Shown: piece by piece, positions 3,099-6,441 of the stretch
How positions within the stretch are numbered: the first letter of the stretch is position 1
Layout: every line of letters begins with the position of its first letter
Virus record (IMG/VR): IMGVR_UViG_2690316278_000002
Origin: a virus
Lineage: Duplodnaviria; Heunggongvirae; Uroviricota; Caudoviricetes
Strand: one strand, 5' to 3'
DNA length: 6,441 bases
Translations under genes and position numbers: made by a program
Notes under the pieces: model-generated
Told to the model about the DNA's origin: nothing
The model's input: the letters and a program-made list of their open reading frames with translations, nothing else
The model's database searches: none

Positions 3099-4163
3099 TC
3101 ACCCCCTGAATCCCGGCGGAATTTCGGTATCCGGTTCAGAAATATGATTCACACAACGCTGGTTGTTCGTGCCGCTTACCGGGAGCAACCAGGGGTTTTC
3201 AAAATTCCGGTCCGGCCCAAAAAACGTCGTCGCTCGCTGAACAAATTCCGTTCCCGCTTTCCCGGTCGCCGCCAGGTATCTCGCGTAACGCCTCACACCA
3301 TCCAGCATGGTCTCTGGTGGCACCCCCTCGCGCAATCTGGCCTTCCAGGCACTGAATGCGGATTTCTTCGGGTTTGCCCCGGCACGCAACGGGTATTCCC
3401 GCCAGACCTGTTCGAACACATCCGGATAATCCACTCGTCCCACAGGCTGCCCGGTGTTTTCCGGGGCTACCCGATCGGCTTCCCGCTGAATGGCGGAATC
3501 GGCTTCAGGCTGCTGCAGTTGGAGTGATTGCTCCGGCCTTGCGGTCATCACCTGCTGCACAGCGCCCGAATCGGCTTTCAGCGCATACGCTGAATCGGCT
3601 TCCGGTGTCGAGCCTGCTGGCTGACCAGGATTGACGGTCTGAACATCCCCTGCCTGGTTCGTGGCGTTTTTTACGCCATGGACCATAGTGTTTTGATCTT
3701 CTTTATCTGTATCTTTATCTGTATCTGTCGTGACTCGTCGTGACATGTGCGTGACATTTCGTGACGCGCCGTGACAATCGCCATTTTGTTCCCGCTTTCT
3801 TTCCCTCTCTCGCTGCGCCCTCTTGCGCTCTGCAGGAGATTTTGCGGTTTGCGAAATATTGCCGTTGTCCTCTTTAAGCACCTGGCGTTTTTCCCATCCA
3901 GTGATTAAATCACCATCAAGTACCCGCCCCTGCATCGTCTGCAAAATTGAATCAATTACCTCTTCTGTCACGTCGAGCGCACTTGCCAAATCTTCTGTCG
4001 TGACATCAATGTGACCTCGCGTGACATTTCGTGACGCGCTCACCAGGAGGTGGATATACACTGCCATCACTGTTGCAATTGGCTGCCCTGACACCCTGGC
4101 AATTGTTCGCCACTTAGGGTCATTTGGCATGTCATGCCATAATCTGAGCCAGGCGTTAGCCAT
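3099..4163 (-). CDS. Phage replication initiation protein with DnaT-like C-terminal tail (YdaU-position), containing intragenic iteron-like repeats
   Basis: 354-aa ORF from ATG 4163-4161 with SD-like GAGGTGAGT immediately upstream (the track's first codon at 4169 is GTG). The C-terminus ...NHISEPDTEIPPGFRG resembles the C-terminal tail of E. coli primosomal protein DnaT (...VSEPDSQIPPGFRG, as I recall it). It sits immediately upstream of a DnaC-like gene, as in the chromosomal dnaT-dnaC operon. The protein carries an internal repeat SRNVT...VTT(E/D)D encoded by the GTGAC arrays. Confidence 0.7.
   Translation of the reverse strand: MANAWLRLWHDMPNDPKWRTIARVSGQPIATVMAVYIHLLVSASRNVTRGHIDVTTEDLASALDVTEEVIDSILQTMQGRVLDGDLITGWEKRQVLKEDNGNISQTAKSPAERKRAQRERERKREQNGDCHGASRNVTHMSRRVTTDTDKDTDKEDQNTMVHGVKNATNQAGDVQTVNPGQPAGSTPEADSAYALKADSGAVQQVMTARPEQSLQLQQPEADSAIQREADRVAPENTGQPVGRVDYPDVFEQVWREYPLRAGANPKKSAFSAWKARLREGVPPETMLDGVRRYARYLAATGKAGTEFVQRATTFFGPDRNFENPWLLPVSGTNNQRCVNHISEPDTEIPPGFRG
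3701..3724. repeat. Exact tandem duplication of the 12-mer CTTTATCTGTAT within a T-rich tract next to array A
   Basis: CTTTATCTGTAT at 3701-3712 and again at 3713-3724, followed by a partial CTGT. On the minus strand it encodes the low-complexity peptide DTDKDTDKED. Confidence 0.6.
3730..3775. repeat. Iteron-like array A: five direct GTGAC motifs phased at 10-11 bp
   Basis: GTGAC at 3730, 3740, 3751, 3761 and 3771 (spacings 10, 11, 10, 10). Contains the 19-mer GTGACATTTCGTGACGCGC (3751-3769), which recurs exactly at 4021-4039. Confidence 0.55.
3967..4039. repeat. Iteron-like array B: four direct GTGAC motifs phased at 10-11 bp plus one inverted copy
   Basis: GTGAC at 4000, 4011, 4021 and 4031. 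An inverted GTCAC lies at 3967-3971. TCTTCTGTC is repeated at 3961 and 3991. The 19-mer at 4021-4039 is identical to 3751-3769. Confidence 0.55.
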
Positions 4164-4234
4164 ACTCACCTCTTCTGATACCGAATCTTTTTACTCACGA
4201 GTTGCCGGGAGCGATTCGATATGGCTATTGTCAG

Positions 4235-4660
4235 TCAATGTACTGCCACAGCATTTCCTGCCGGGCCACCACGGTTCATCTGATTGAAACCGGCGATTGC
4301 CACTGCGACAAAATCATCAGCGTCTCTCACCAGTCGTTCATGCGTCTCCACCAGTTCCCGAAAATAAGCTGAACTGTGGCTGCGCATTCGAGCCACCAGC
4401 GGAGGTGGCATTGCCCTTTCGATCGCAGGTAACAACGCCTGAATTTTTTCAACAGCGTCAGGGGTGTCTTTATCCAGCCAACGGAAAATCTTTTGGGTGT
4501 TGAGATAAAGCGTGTTGTGCTTGCTGTCGTTATGCAGAACCGGAAACGTCATTCCCAGTTCGAAATAAACCCTGGTTATTTCAGCTGCCGGAACTTTTTC
4601 ACCGTCCGGATGCGCCCAGGCTTTCATCGCCATGCGGATGTGTTCATGCTTGATTTTCAT
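4235..4660 (-). CDS. ydaT: YdaT-family protein (putative toxin / cII-position regulator of Rac-like prophages)
   Basis: 141-aa ORF starting MKIKHEHI..., matching my recollection of the N-terminus of E. coli Rac YdaT. Its ATG (4660-4658) overlaps the stop of the upstream Cro-like gene (4659-4657) in an ATGA arrangement. G-rich SD-like GGCGGGGG lies upstream. Confidence 0.7.
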   Translation of the reverse strand: MKIKHEHIRMAMKAWAHPDGEKVPAAEITRVYFELGMTFPVLHNDSKHNTLYLNTQKIFRWLDKDTPDAVEKIQALLPAIERAMPPPLVARMRSHSSAYFRELVETHERLVRDADDFVAVAIAGFNQMNRGGPAGNAVAVH

Positions 4661-4920
4661 GAATCAACCCCCGCCGATGGTTGTGTGTTAGCCTGAAACT
4701 CAGCAGGCAAGCCGTCAGTTGGGTTGGGGTAGGTTTTACTGTCAATCTCATGTGGGGTCACCACCCATCCCGTTGCTTCACACCAACGTAATATTTTTTC
4801 TCCTGTAAGTTTTGCACGCCCCGTTATAACGTGGCTGACCATCCCTTGGGATGCGCCAACAATCTCAGCAAATGAACTCTGGGTTATATGAAAATGATGC
4901 AAATATTCTCCAAGATTCAT
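4657..4920 (-). CDS. Cro-like HTH DNA-binding protein (first gene of the early operon; YdaS-position)
   Basis: 87-aa ORF from the first ATG (MNLGEYLHHFHITQSSFAEIVGASQGMVSHVITGRAKLTGEKILRWCEATGWVVTPHEI...). Helix-turn-helix-like segment QSSFAEIVGASQGMVSHVI. Divergent from the cI-like gene. Weak SD-like AGGG about 7 nt upstream. The track ORF starts at TTG 4947; I prefer ATG 4920. Confidence 0.7.
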   Translation of the reverse strand: MNLGEYLHHFHITQSSFAEIVGASQGMVSHVITGRAKLTGEKILRWCEATGWVVTPHEIDSKTYPNPTDGLPAEFQANTQPSAGVDS

Positions 4921-5031
4921 AATCCGCCCTATGTGATGTGTTACCAATGCATAATTAATAGCACTGTTATTTTTAAAAGTAAATAGTGATGCTATTTCAA
5001 AGTGATTAGCAATCTTATTAGAATTGGATGT
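4921..5031. promoter_or_regulatory. Divergent promoter/operator region between the cI-like and Cro-like genes
   Basis: 111-bp AT-rich intergenic spacer between divergent starts (4920 minus, 5032 plus). Two 15-bp operator-like sites: AATAGCACTGTTATT (4957-4971) and the near-perfect palindrome AATAGTGATGCTATT (4982-4996), centres 25 bp apart. Candidate + strand promoter: -35 TTCAAA (4996-5001), 17-bp spacer, -10 TAGAAT (5019-5024), which puts the transcript start at or next to the ATG at 5032 (leaderless, as for lambda PRM). Candidate minus-strand promoter: -35 TTTACT (complement of 4978-4983), 17-bp spacer, -10 TATTAA (complement of 4955-4960). Promoter hexamers were assigned by eye. Confidence 0.5.
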
Positions 5032-5459
5032 ATGAAAAGAAAATCATTGTCAGACACCGACCTCAACGCCGCCAGAAGACTGAAAGAAATCTGGATGGCA
5101 AAGAAATCTCAGTTGGGATTGACTCAGGAACGTGCGGCGGAAATTATGGGGTTTTCAACACAAGGGGCGGTAAGTCACTACCTAAATGGTCAAACCCCAC
5201 TAAACCTTGAGGCTGTTCTAAAGTTTGCTGGCTTACTGAAAGTTCCCCCTGAGTCAATCAGGCCAGACATGGTAGATTTGCTGCAAATTGCAAGGATGTA
5301 TTGTCGAGAACCACAGCAAGATAACATAGTCGCATTACCAGCAGACACAGAACAAACAGAGGATGAACTACCGTTTGCCGTAGAGCCGATGGAACGAGAT
5401 TTAATCCATACGTTCAGAGCTTTTCCGAAAGAAGATCAAGAACACATGCTTCAGGAGAT
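5032..5459 (+). CDS. cI: Lambda cI-like phage repressor, N-terminal HTH domain plus linker (partial; 3' end hidden in N-mask 5460-6407)
   Basis: Translation from ATG 5032 (MKRKSLSDTDLNAARRLKEIWMAKKSQLGLTQERAAEIMGFSTQGAVSHYLNGQ...LKFAGLLKVPPESIRP) lines up with my recollection of the lambda CI N-terminus ([47 protein letters not shown]...LLAKILKVSVEEFSP). It is divergent from a Cro-like gene. The 469-aa ORF in the track is an artefact of reading through the N-run; the true stop is not visible. The GTG at 5002 is an alternative start but 5032 is the first ATG. Confidence 0.8.
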
Positions 5460-6441
5460 NNNNNNNNNNNNNNNNNNNNNNNNNNNNNNNNNNNNNNNNN
5501 NNNNNNNNNNNNNNNNNNNNNNNNNNNNNNNNNNNNNNNNNNNNNNNNNNNNNNNNNNNNNNNNNNNNNNNNNNNNNNNNNNNNNNNNNNNNNNNNNNNN
5601 NNNNNNNNNNNNNNNNNNNNNNNNNNNNNNNNNNNNNNNNNNNNNNNNNNNNNNNNNNNNNNNNNNNNNNNNNNNNNNNNNNNNNNNNNNNNNNNNNNNN
5701 NNNNNNNNNNNNNNNNNNNNNNNNNNNNNNNNNNNNNNNNNNNNNNNNNNNNNNNNNNNNNNNNNNNNNNNNNNNNNNNNNNNNNNNNNNNNNNNNNNNN
5801 NNNNNNNNNNNNNNNNNNNNNNNNNNNNNNNNNNNNNNNNNNNNNNNNNNNNNNNNNNNNNNNNNNNNNNNNNNNNNNNNNNNNNNNNNNNNNNNNNNNN
5901 NNNNNNNNNNNNNNNNNNNNNNNNNNNNNNNNNNNNNNNNNNNNNNNNNNNNNNNNNNNNNNNNNNNNNNNNNNNNNNNNNNNNNNNNNNNNNNNNNNNN
6001 NNNNNNNNNNNNNNNNNNNNNNNNNNNNNNNNNNNNNNNNNNNNNNNNNNNNNNNNNNNNNNNNNNNNNNNNNNNNNNNNNNNNNNNNNNNNNNNNNNNN
6101 NNNNNNNNNNNNNNNNNNNNNNNNNNNNNNNNNNNNNNNNNNNNNNNNNNNNNNNNNNNNNNNNNNNNNNNNNNNNNNNNNNNNNNNNNNNNNNNNNNNN
6201 NNNNNNNNNNNNNNNNNNNNNNNNNNNNNNNNNNNNNNNNNNNNNNNNNNNNNNNNNNNNNNNNNNNNNNNNNNNNNNNNNNNNNNNNNNNNNNNNNNNN
6301 NNNNNNNNNNNNNNNNNNNNNNNNNNNNNNNNNNNNNNNNNNNNNNNNNNNNNNNNNNNNNNNNNNNNNNNNNNNNNNNNNNNNNNNNNNNNNNNNNNNN
6401 NNNNNNNATGACGGCAGGGTTCAATCTTTAACTATGCAGCA

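Follow-up and report, generated by a model that had tools for sequence, protein, structure and literature searches.

The window, by which we mean the whole 6,441-nt stretch of DNA analyzed here, contains two divergent genes separated by a spacer of 111 bp (positions 4921 to 5031) with a base composition of 70% A+T. Leftward from the ATG at 4920 on the minus strand runs a cro-like gene (4657 to 4920) at the position of ydaS, encoding an HTH_3 protein of 87 amino acids, followed by ydaT, the equivalent of cII (4235 to 4660, minus strand; 141 amino acids, Pfam YdaT_toxin). Rightward from the ATG at 5032 on the plus strand runs a repressor gene, of which 142 codons (5032 to 5459) are readable. Positions 5460 to 6407, covering the rest of the repressor gene, the toxin-antitoxin (TA) genes, and OL, are masked with N.

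The locus was compared with a 98%-identical Escherichia coli prophage (L001), six further relatives with 76 to 79% identity (L002 to L007), two heteroimmune relatives, L008 and L009 (CP-933P), and three distant lineages, L010 (Salmonella), L012, and L014. CP-933P (Sp12) of E. coli O157:H7, with its paaR2-paaA2-parE2/ydaS-ydaT module, is the system described by Jurenas et al. 2021 (PMC8630535) and Prolic-Kalinsek et al. 2023 (PMC9986795), and its locus was found with the primer table of PMC8630535. In L001, the repressor has a full length of 166 amino acids, and its gene is the first of an operon that also encodes an antitoxin like RelB/PaaA and a toxin of the ParE/RelE type, which are 73% and 67% identical to their CP-933P counterparts, respectively. 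A search of 50,697 phage records returned lambda-type cI proteins as the nearest repressors, at about 32% identity, and DNA matches only at the ydaT junction. Rfam gave no RNA family match in the window.

A first-pass annotation of this DNA had called the repressor cI-like, which is true of its N-terminal domain. In a phmmer search of the PDB, residues 2 to 90 matched the lambda cI DNA-binding domain (1lmb, 1rio, and 3bdn; E values of 1e-9 to 5e-9); the HTH domain is preceded by a basic KRK arm, and E33 and E37 align with the lambda cI positive-control residues E34 and D38. The label does not extend to the C terminus, which lacks a LexA-type cleavage domain and is of the PaaR2 type, with 52% identity over 44 amino acids to PaaR2 and 56% over 64 amino acids to the PaaR-like protein of L008. 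Peptidase_S24 was absent from the full 166-amino-acid protein even at E ≤ 1, and since there is no LexA/S24 self-cleavage domain, RecA-mediated induction is not expected. In relatives with proteins of 244 to 255 amino acids, the lambda-cI-type domain is placed before a complete second PaaR-like HTH protein. The recognition helix of the repressor, TQGAVSHYLNG, resembles that of the Cro-like protein, SQGMVSHVITG. The divergent cI-like/Cro-like switch proposed earlier is borne out by these genes, as the repressor N terminus is homologous to cI and genes for a Cro-type HTH protein and YdaT lie on the minus strand.

Two related 15-bp sites, 25 bp apart and lying over predicted promoter hexamers, had been described in the spacer, and both are present. 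O1 (AATAGCACTGTTATT, 4957 to 4971) overlaps the extended -10 of a predicted PR and is centered at -68 from the repressor ATG and at -16 relative to the predicted PR start. O2 (AATAGTGATGCTATT, 4982 to 4996) adjoins both -35 hexamers, with its center at -43 from the repressor ATG and at -41 relative to the predicted PR start. It had been taken for a near-perfect palindrome; this holds for the outer 5 + 5 bases, whereas two inner pairs are asymmetric. A third, weak site, O3 (ATTAGCAATCTTATT, 5005 to 5019), lies within the spacer of the repressor promoter, centered at -20 from the ATG, and the -10 of that promoter begins on the T with which O3 ends. The start-to-start spacing is 25 bp for O1-O2 and 23 bp for O2-O3. 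With one mismatch allowed, the pattern AATAG-N5-CTATT occurs in the window only at O1 and O2, compared with 0.10 sites expected. When the 111-bp spacer was shuffled 20,000 times with its dinucleotides preserved, the probability of at least two sites with at most one mismatch was 1.5e-4 (0.015%), and that of at least one perfect site was 5e-4. Since the operator pattern was picked post hoc, we rely on the comparative evidence more than on these statistics.

The 4322 positions of the window were ranked with a weight matrix derived from L010, L012, and L014, i.e., from homologous and hence not fully independent regions, and the first three places went to 4957, 4982, and 5005. The scores were 18.3 bits for O1, 17.4 for O2, and 13.3 for O3, with the next match at 8.2. 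In L001, OR1 to OR3 together with two OL sites were the top five matches in 24.8 kb. The statement in the first-pass annotation that only two clear sites exist, fewer than three, does not hold, as the site at 5005 to 5019 is the third-best matrix match in the window; with three OR sites, the puzzle of the missing operator is gone.

In an alignment of the window with L001 to L007, O1 is conserved, and the outer AATAG/CTATT bases of O2 are invariant around variable positions 6 to 10. L010, L012, and L014 keep the position of O1 and have three OR sites each, with centers at -67/-68, -42/-43, and -19/-20 from the ATG. Their repressors, at 47 to 75% identity, have the same helix TQGAVSHYLN, and their Cro-like proteins have the same SQGMVSH helix. 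Every locus with the operator motif keeps the Cro-like helix; in L008 and L009 (CP-933P), which are heteroimmune, the helix is different, and no AATAG-N5-CTATT sites were found. Given a spacer so rich in A+T and a pattern defined after the sequence had been seen, the sites might be chance dyads without function, but this is effectively refuted by the comparative data, namely, the recurrence of the sites at OL, a variable center amid conservation, a fixed geometry across lineages, and absence of the motif in the heteroimmune relatives. This comparative evidence marks O1 and O2 as operators, and the predicted operator consensus is AATAGCA-N-TGCTATT, a dyad-symmetric arrangement of the half-site AATAGCA (7-N-7).

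O3 departs from the pattern at 2 of the 10 outer positions in the window and at 3 in L002 to L007 (ATTAATAATCTTATT), and because it is degenerate here and more so in those relatives, it may be weak or nonfunctional in this lineage. Only O1 and O2 would then be bound, the sequence from 5005 to 5019 would be a motif-like promoter spacer owed to descent or chance, and there would be no negative autoregulation of the O3 type. An OL with only two sites in every locus would suit such a two-operator switch, and 15-mers with at most two mismatches occur 0.17 times per spacer shuffle. We nonetheless consider it unlikely. An O3 at -19/-20 is found in four lineages, with a single mismatch in three of them (L010, L012, and L014, where the equivalent ATTAGTAAAACTATT is clearer); no background position, either in the window or in the 24.8 kb of L001, comes within 5 bits of its score, and its position and 23-bp spacing match those of lambda OR3. 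A set of three operators is the reading we prefer.

Several other elements were discarded. GTGAT does occur at 4933, 4986, and 5002, as had been pointed out, but its significance did not stand up, with 13 copies in the window against 9.2 ± 3.2 expected. The GTGAT "core" inside O2 reads GCGAT in L001 and so is unconserved; the cores as a whole were put down to chance. The palindrome GTGATTAAATCAC (3901 to 3913) in the initiator gene, which had been mentioned together with these cores, is a real one but has no match to the operator matrix and is unrelated to the operator; its neighbors are iteron-like GTGAC repeats in the O-like gene, so it is more likely related to the origin. An inverted repeat (4912 to 4924 and 5004 to 5016) was rejected with its left arm unconserved in relatives, and so was an alternative plus-strand -10, CATAAT (4950 to 4955), which has no -35 and is unconserved in relatives.

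On the minus strand, the predicted PR (4955 to 4983) consists of the -35 hexamer TTTACT (4983 to 4978), a 17-nt spacer, and the extended -10 TGC-TATTAA (4963 to 4955). Its predicted start is A 4948, which would give a 28-nt leader with a Shine-Dalgarno (SD) sequence ahead of the cro-like ATG (anti-SD pairing of -7.4 kcal/mol). A consensus promoter scan of the window did not call this promoter, its -10 TATTAA being without the usually conserved T at position 6 (-7). We infer PR from the sequence layout, which is found also in L010, L012, and L014 and, as TTTACA-17-TGC-TATTGT, at OL/PL of L001.

A YdaT box (TTGATTTTCATGAATCAA, 4650 to 4667) includes both the stop codon of the cro-like gene and the start codon of ydaT. 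It shows no mismatches to TTGATT-N6-AATCAA, the YdaT site for which a footprint has been published (PMC9986795), is the sole such site in the window, and is also present in L001 to L009. YdaT itself is 77% identical to CP-933P YdaT and 81% identical to the L008 copy. Located 22 nt past the box toward the repressor gene is a candidate PRE-like extended -10, TGT-TAGCCT (4686 to 4694, plus strand), and the same offset is shared by TACAAT in CP-933P and TGT-TAACCT in L008. If active, such a promoter would put the center of the YdaT box near -42; the authors of PMC9986795 placed the box downstream of their predicted PRE.

For the repressor gene, a PRM-like promoter is predicted at 4996 to 5024 on the plus strand, comprising the -35 TTCAAA (4996 to 5001), a 17-nt spacer, and the -10 TAGAAT (5019 to 5024), and TTCAAA-17-TAGAAT was reported independently by a promoter scan. 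The first-pass annotation had placed TAGAAT 7 nt ahead of the ATG at 5032, and this position (gap TGGATGT) was borne out. The hexamer is invariant in 8/8 aligned sequences (window and L001 to L007). It is followed by 7 nt in these and in L014, while L012 and L010 have TAAAAT plus 6 nt; in all three distant lineages, TAGAAT or TAAAAT occupies the same register relative to O3. The reference systems have GATAAT plus 6 nt (CP-933P) and TAGATT plus 6 nt (lambda, from the annotated record). The 6 to 7 nt between the -10 and the repressor ATG are unconserved in sequence across four lineages, and the start codon is ATG in all lineages compared. Anti-SD pairing amounts to -0.6 to -4.2 kcal/mol for the repressor genes versus -7.4 to -11.7 kcal/mol for the cro-like genes, and the weak anti-SD tracts of the former lie only 1 to 3 nt from the ATG.

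With the -10 ending at 5024, T 5031 would be -1 and A 5032 would be +1. The repressor mRNA is probably leaderless and starts at the AUG, as had been predicted; this is well supported, if not proven, by the conserved -10-to-ATG geometry and its match to lambda cI and CP-933P paaR2. The gap is 7 nt, one more than the 6 nt of lambda and CP-933P, so that transcription could instead begin at T 5031 or G 5030, giving a leader of 1 to 2 nt. The lambda cI mRNA is the classic leaderless mRNA, established by experiment. For CP-933P paaR2, the leaderless state was demonstrated by 5' RACE, N-terminal sequencing, and mass spectrometry (PMC8630535).

The alternative is a leadered mRNA that starts further upstream, at the YdaT-dependent PRE-like promoter or another plus-strand promoter, and is translated via GGA/AAGG or from the GTG at 5002. 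That there is a PRE-like route is almost certain, given the YdaT box and PMC8630535; its leader would be about 330 nt long, so that mRNAs with a leader should occur alongside any leaderless mRNA. A GGAT or AAGG is also present 1 to 3 nt from the ATG, and an in-frame extension is open from GTG 5002. The purine tract upstream, however, is too near the ATG, pairs weakly with the anti-SD sequence (-3.5 kcal/mol), and is unconserved between lineages. GTG 5002 was rejected as a translation start: the extension is out of frame and meets a stop in L010 and L012, which leaves ATG 5032 as the start, and the lambda cI arm aligns from residue 2. Furthermore, a conserved -10 at 6 to 7 nt from the ATG would have no other obvious rationale, and the experimentally studied homologous module, CP-933P, is leaderless. 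Leadered transcription in place of the leaderless mRNA is, in our judgment, decidedly improbable.

The motif search for OL that the first-pass annotation had called for yielded a pair of sites, seen only in relatives because positions 5460 to 6407 of the window are masked. In L001, AATAGCGATGCTATT at 13494 and AATAATGATGCTATT at 13519, spaced 25 bp apart, are located in the toxin-ydfA spacer about 1.1 kb downstream, just past a terminator-like GC-rich hairpin with a T-run. The pair covers the PL-like TTTACA-17-TGC-TATTGT, and an identical copy of O2 is reused there. Behind it lies the leftward operon ydfA-ydfB-ydfC-DicF-dicB. The OL pair is present in 6/6 further relatives (L002 to L007) and also in L010, L012, and L014, with two sites each; no candidate for a third OL site was seen among the top matrix matches in L001. 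In the window, the pair would be expected within the masked part, about 140 bp upstream of 6408.

Promoters of type II TA systems usually have palindromic operators, and the repressor gene of L001 heads an operon with an antitoxin and a ParE/RelE toxin, so that the palindromes could also be autoregulatory operators of the downstream TA pair, bound by the antitoxin-toxin complex in classical type II fashion. This is barely plausible, as the motif persists across L010, L012, and L014, whose TA cargo differs (HigB, HipA, or none), and is missing from CP-933P and L008, the carriers of the closest TA homologues. Another promoter that the motif guards, the one toward ydfA/dicB, has no relation to TA. 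In addition, PaaA2-ParE2 is treated as a noncanonical TA operon, the transcription of which is controlled by a third gene, paaR2 (PMC8630535).

We conclude that positions 4921 to 5031 very probably constitute the OR of a lambdoid prophage, with three operators, repression of PR, control of the repressor promoter, and a leaderless repressor mRNA. From the sites, their conservation and geometry, their co-occurrence with the two recognition helices, and the domain homologies, we infer binding, occupancy order, activation, transcription starts, and looping as follows. The 166-amino-acid repressor, whose gene runs rightward from 5032, and the 87-amino-acid Cro-like protein, whose gene runs leftward from 4920, would share O1 to O3 as targets. 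PR (TTTACT-17-TGCTATTAA, minus strand) would be blocked once repressor dimers occupy O1 and O2; the O1 half-site TGCTATT would be the PR extended -10 itself, and O2 would overlap the PR -35. As the center of O2 lies about 43 bp upstream of the repressor start and E33/E37 are aligned with the positive-control residues, O2-bound repressor probably also stimulates its own weak promoter, TTCAAA-17-TAGAAT. Lambda cI activates PRM from that position.

The weak O3 inside the repressor promoter would confer negative autoregulation at high repressor levels, and the Cro-like protein probably binds there first. The repressor would thus be expected to fill O1/O2 ahead of O3, and the Cro-like protein to fill them in the opposite order. 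Transcription from TAGAAT would start on the first base of the start codon (A 5032) or no more than 1 to 2 nt from it, yielding a leaderless mRNA. Through the two sites past the repressor-antitoxin-toxin operon seen in relatives, the repressor would also shut the PL-like promoter, and YdaT bound at 4650 to 4667 would provide a second, cII/PRE-like route to repressor synthesis. More tentatively, the repressor might be a natural chimera that, if its PaaR2-type tail octamerizes, forms an SOS-blind, loop-forming bistable switch in which the half-site TGCTATT serves as the extended -10 of PR and PL; this is a possibility that we would not yet favor. If true, immunity specificity and promoter identity would be locked together.

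The immunity group was detected in 72 of 5426 complete E. coli genomes and also in Shigella sonnei, E. albertii, and Salmonella diarizonae. A literature search found no paper on an AATAGCA-N-TGCTATT immunity type. The consensus can be used for annotating the group, and homo-immunity is predicted between prophages with repressors that differ by more than 50% overall.

Compared with lambda, the arrangement of three dyad operators between divergent promoters is the same, with centers at -68/-43/-20 here versus -66/-42/-19 and spacings of 25 and 23 bp versus 24 and 23 bp. The N-terminal domain of lambda cI is homologous to that of the repressor, including the arm and the acidic positive-control positions, and the lambda operators are repeated at OL, as they are in relatives of the window, although OL here has two sites, unlike in lambda. 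The lambda operators are 17 bp long, whereas those here are 15 bp and of another sequence; the LexA/S24 self-cleavage C-terminal domain of lambda cI is missing from the repressor; the role of cII falls to YdaT, which is unrelated to lambda cII; and the place of rexAB is taken by the TA pair in L001. The putative PR and PL also differ from those of lambda in having an extended -10 embedded in an operator half-site.

The gene order is the same as in CP-933P, where repressor, antitoxin, and ParE toxin likewise face the cro-like, ydaT, and O-like genes (the TA part being taken from L001), and the two systems have identical YdaT boxes where the cro-like gene meets ydaT. Both combine operators at OR with operators at OL, and in both a PL-like promoter follows the toxin gene, as judged here from the window and its relatives, but three OL sites are reported for CP-933P versus two in the relatives of the window, and the divergent spacer is 97 bp in CP-933P versus 111 bp here. 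PaaR2 is reported to octamerize, and the same C-terminal domain type is found on the repressor; the N-terminal domain of PaaR2, however, does not align with that of the repressor, which is lambda-cI-like. The CP-933P Cro-like protein is only 26% identical to the one described here, and the CP-933P operators are GTTTAGTAA repeats in place of AATAGCA-N-TGCTATT, with no GTTTAGTAA-like sites in the window.

Among the cryptic prophages of E. coli K-12, the RacR/YdaS/YdaT region of Rac likewise has a short, peptidase-less HTH repressor opposite a Cro-like gene followed by YdaT. The ydfA-ydfB-ydfC-DicF-dicB operon of L001 is arranged as in Qin (DicA/DicC). With the Rac proteins, CP-933P YdaS shares only 26% identity and CP-933P YdaT only 31% (PMC8630535).

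The system is a new heteroimmune member of the known lambdoid/CP-933P switch: its specificity variant is new, and the switch type has already been worked out experimentally, with no new kind of mechanism involved. Beside lambda, 434/P22, and CP-933P, it would be a fourth worked example of the design with a tripartite OR and a leaderless repressor mRNA, one that survives a full swap of the repressor DNA-binding domain, Cro, and the operators with its geometry kept within 1 to 2 bp.

The window covers part of a lambdoid prophage and is masked with Ns in several places. On its minus strand, we found genes for a Cro-type HTH protein of 87 aa (4920-4657), a YdaT-family protein (4660-4235), an O-like initiator (4169-3099) and a DUF1627 protein, as well as a partly masked 253-aa ORF (3092-2331) whose position matches the ATP-binding replication gene of relatives. 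The plus strand carries an HTH_3 repressor gene that starts with the ATG at 5032 and enters a masked stretch at 5460. The best protein matches come from Shigella sonnei, and positions 4600-5459 are 98.3% identical to a prophage locus of E. coli FDAARGOS_944 (L001), where the repressor (166 aa) is followed by genes for a RelB/PaaA-like antitoxin and a ParE/RelE toxin and then by ydfA-ydfB-ydfC-DicF-dicB. The masked stretch 5460-6407 covers the repressor C terminus and the toxin-antitoxin (TA) genes, as well as an OL pair that is expected there. Since the repressor ATG and the 6408 landmark lie ~174 bp farther apart than in L001, the masked part has an indel relative to that locus. A mosaic difference also adjoins the immunity region: in L001 (10971-11429) and in the O157 locus L008, an additional ECs1072-family gene on the plus strand separates the O-like gene from ydaT, where the window has just a 66-bp spacer (4170-4234).

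Sites of the AATAG-N5-CTATT type with at most one mismatch occur in the window only at 4957 (O1, 4957-4971) and 4982 (O2, 4982-4996), against 0.10 expected, and two such sites arose in 0.015% of shuffles of the AT-rich 111-bp spacer alone. All coordinates of the first-pass annotation, which had proposed this pair as operators, proved correct when checked against the sequence. GTGAT cores, which it had regarded as a recurring signal, are at chance level (13 in the window versus 9.2 expected), and the one within O2 is not conserved. The anomaly of only two sites disappears with a third, O3 (ATTAGCAATCTTATT, 5005-5019), which lies 23 bp from O2 within the spacer of the repressor promoter and makes the predicted OR tripartite. 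O3 is the weakest site in the window and is weaker yet in the six relatives L002-L007.

A weight matrix was trained only on the sites of three distant lineages, L010 (Salmonella diarizonae), L012 and L014 (consensus AATAGCAATGCTATT). The top three among the 4322 unmasked window positions were 4957 (18.3 bits), 4982 (17.4 bits) and 5005 (13.3 bits), the next position reaching 8.2 bits, and on L001 OR1-3 and OL1-2 were the top five in 24.8 kb. Each of the three lineages has three OR sites, whose centers relative to the repressor ATG are -67/-68, -42/-43 and -19/-20, with one mismatch in the O3 equivalent, and a downstream site pair. They share the repressor recognition helix TQGAVSHYLN and the Cro-like helix SQGMVSH. 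A version 76-79% identical is present in 70 more complete E. coli genomes, and all OR and OL sites are present in 6/6 aligned relatives among these. In the alignment, the AATAG and CTATT arms of O2 are invariant and positions 6-10 vary freely, a pattern as would be expected for a dimeric HTH site. No sites of this type were found in the heteroimmune relatives L008 and CP-933P (L009), which have different recognition helices, yet the closest TA and YdaT genes; the motif thus tracks the repressor and its Cro partner rather than the TA module.

The operators overlap the predicted promoters. On the minus strand, a putative PR with an extended -10 (TTTACT at 4983-4978, a 17-nt spacer and TGC-TATTAA at 4963-4955) would start at the A at 4948 and give a 28-nt leader with a Shine-Dalgarno sequence (-7.4 kcal/mol). 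The O1 half-site TGCTATT is itself the extended -10 of this promoter, O2 shares two bases with its -35, and the design is conserved in L010, L012 and L014. For the repressor promoter, a scan independently returned TTCAAA-17-TAGAAT, ending at 5024 on the plus strand; its -35 (4996-5001) starts on the last T of O2, and the final T of O3 doubles as the first T of its -10. With +1 at 5032, the operators are centered at -68, -43 and -20; OR1, OR2 and OR3 in the annotated lambda record are centered at -66, -42 and -19 from the cI ATG, so that the layout is superimposable on lambda OR within 1-2 bp. Lambda cI and the repressor have homologous N-terminal domains (E of about 1e-9), with a similarity that extends to the basic arm, and glutamates of the repressor align with cI E34 and D38. 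These two are the positive-control residues of lambda cI (PDB 1rio). Given the cI-like domain and the aligned glutamates, it would be plausible that repressor bound at O2 activates its own promoter.

The motif search for an OL uncovered a second pair in L001, at 13494 and 13519 and spaced 25 bp as at OR; the counterpart stretch of the window is masked, and by analogy the pair would be expected ~140 bp ahead of 6408. The L001 pair lies in the toxin-ydfA spacer, directly after a terminator-like hairpin, and, because it covers a promoter of the same design as PR (TTTACA-17-TGC-TATTGT) reading into the ydfA/dicB operon, we assign it as OL/PL. The hairpin, identified by eye and not via a terminator scan, is GC rich and followed by a T-run (13457-13479, AACCACCTTAGGGTGGTTTTTT, between the end of the toxin gene and OL1); it resembles an intrinsic terminator that would keep transcripts of the repressor operon from running on into PL. 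A leader of ~170 nt (L001 13536-13712; also in L002-L007 and in CP-933P, L009 3110-3200), inside which the window sequence resumes at 6408, separates ydfA from the PL-like promoter. It is nearly invariant across heteroimmune prophages (e.g., CCCACCCCGCCCCACAGAA...GGTCAGGGG.TAAGTAGCCAGCCCGAGGCGTA) and had no match in Rfam; it may represent a regulatory RNA element, nut-like or of another kind.

The leaderless repressor mRNA predicted in the first-pass annotation fits the comparative data. The -10 (TAGAAT or TAAAAT) and its 6- or 7-nt gap to the ATG are conserved in four lineages, the bases between them vary (TGGATGT, TGAAGGT, GACGACT, GAGACC, AGGAAA), all repressor starts are ATG, and anti-Shine-Dalgarno pairing before the ATG is weak and too near it. 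Lambda cI (TAGATT+6+ATG) and CP-933P paaR2 (GATAAT+6+ATG) are arranged alike, and for paaR2 the lack of a leader has been demonstrated experimentally (5' RACE, N-terminal sequencing and mass spectrometry; PMC8630535). The in-frame GTG at 5002 is not conserved as an alternative start. Gene callers extend the L014/L015 repressor ORF through O3 and the -10 (3001 versus 3031, 255 versus 244 aa). In L010 and L012 the upstream extension, which is open from GTG 5002 in the window, falls out of frame; the upstream starts are thus mis-called, as expected for leaderless genes. We consider a transcript start at 5030-5032 likely, and a PRE-like promoter probably yields leadered transcripts in addition.

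Further elements surround the switch. A YdaT box (TTGATTTTCATGAATCAA, 4650-4667) spans the stop codon of the cro-like gene together with the ATG of ydaT and matches the published site TTGATT-N6-AATCAA with 0 mismatches. A candidate extended -10 (TGT-TAGCCT, 4686-4694) faces the repressor gene 22 nt beyond the box, which it would possibly place near -42; the published account puts the box downstream of its predicted PRE (PMC9986795). Directly after the repressor gene, cargo differs among same-operator prophages: a PaaA/ParE-like TA in L001 (12953-13437), HigB plus an HTH antitoxin in L010 (3612-4339), HipA_2 plus DUF3037 in L012 (3787-5360) and no TA in L014 (downstream of 3768). Within the immunity operon, this slot resembles a hotspot for cargo with addiction or defense roles. 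The O-like gene contains two GTGAC-repeat arrays with ~10-11 bp phasing, within 3700-3775 and 3994-4035 (GTCGTGACATGTGCGTGACATTTCGTGACGCGCCGTGAC plus a 72% copy 260 bp off), a tandem TCTTTATCTGTA x2 and, between the arrays, the palindrome GTGATTAAATCAC (3901-3913), which together look like origin iterons located, as in lambda ori, inside the initiator gene.

Overall, the first-pass interpretation is supported with three corrections: three sites, GTGAT as noise and a repressor whose resemblance to cI is confined to the N-terminal domain. No S24 peptidase domain was found in the repressor, and LexA-type induction is therefore not expected. The repressor occurs in no characterized phage among 50,697 phage records compared, and our literature search found no paper on it. 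Variants of 244 aa (P0013; P0018, L012 3001-3735; P0020, L014 3031-3768 after correction of the mis-called start) carry the same cI-like domain fused ahead of an entire second HTH protein of the PaaR-like type and thus combine two HTH domains with a single tail; the repressor of 166 aa looks like such a protein without the inner HTH. Relative to the CP-933P module, the locus is a heteroimmune allele: YdaT, antitoxin and toxin are 77%, 73% and 67% identical to their counterparts, the tail of the repressor shares 52-56% identity with the CP-933P-type (PaaR-like) tail, and the PRE primer of the CP-933P study (PMC8630535) matches 4632-4651 exactly. In contrast, the N-terminal domain of the repressor resembles cI instead of PaaR2, the Cro-like proteins share just 26% identity and the operators are unrelated to those of CP-933P. 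Mechanistically, the locus is a standard lambdoid switch.
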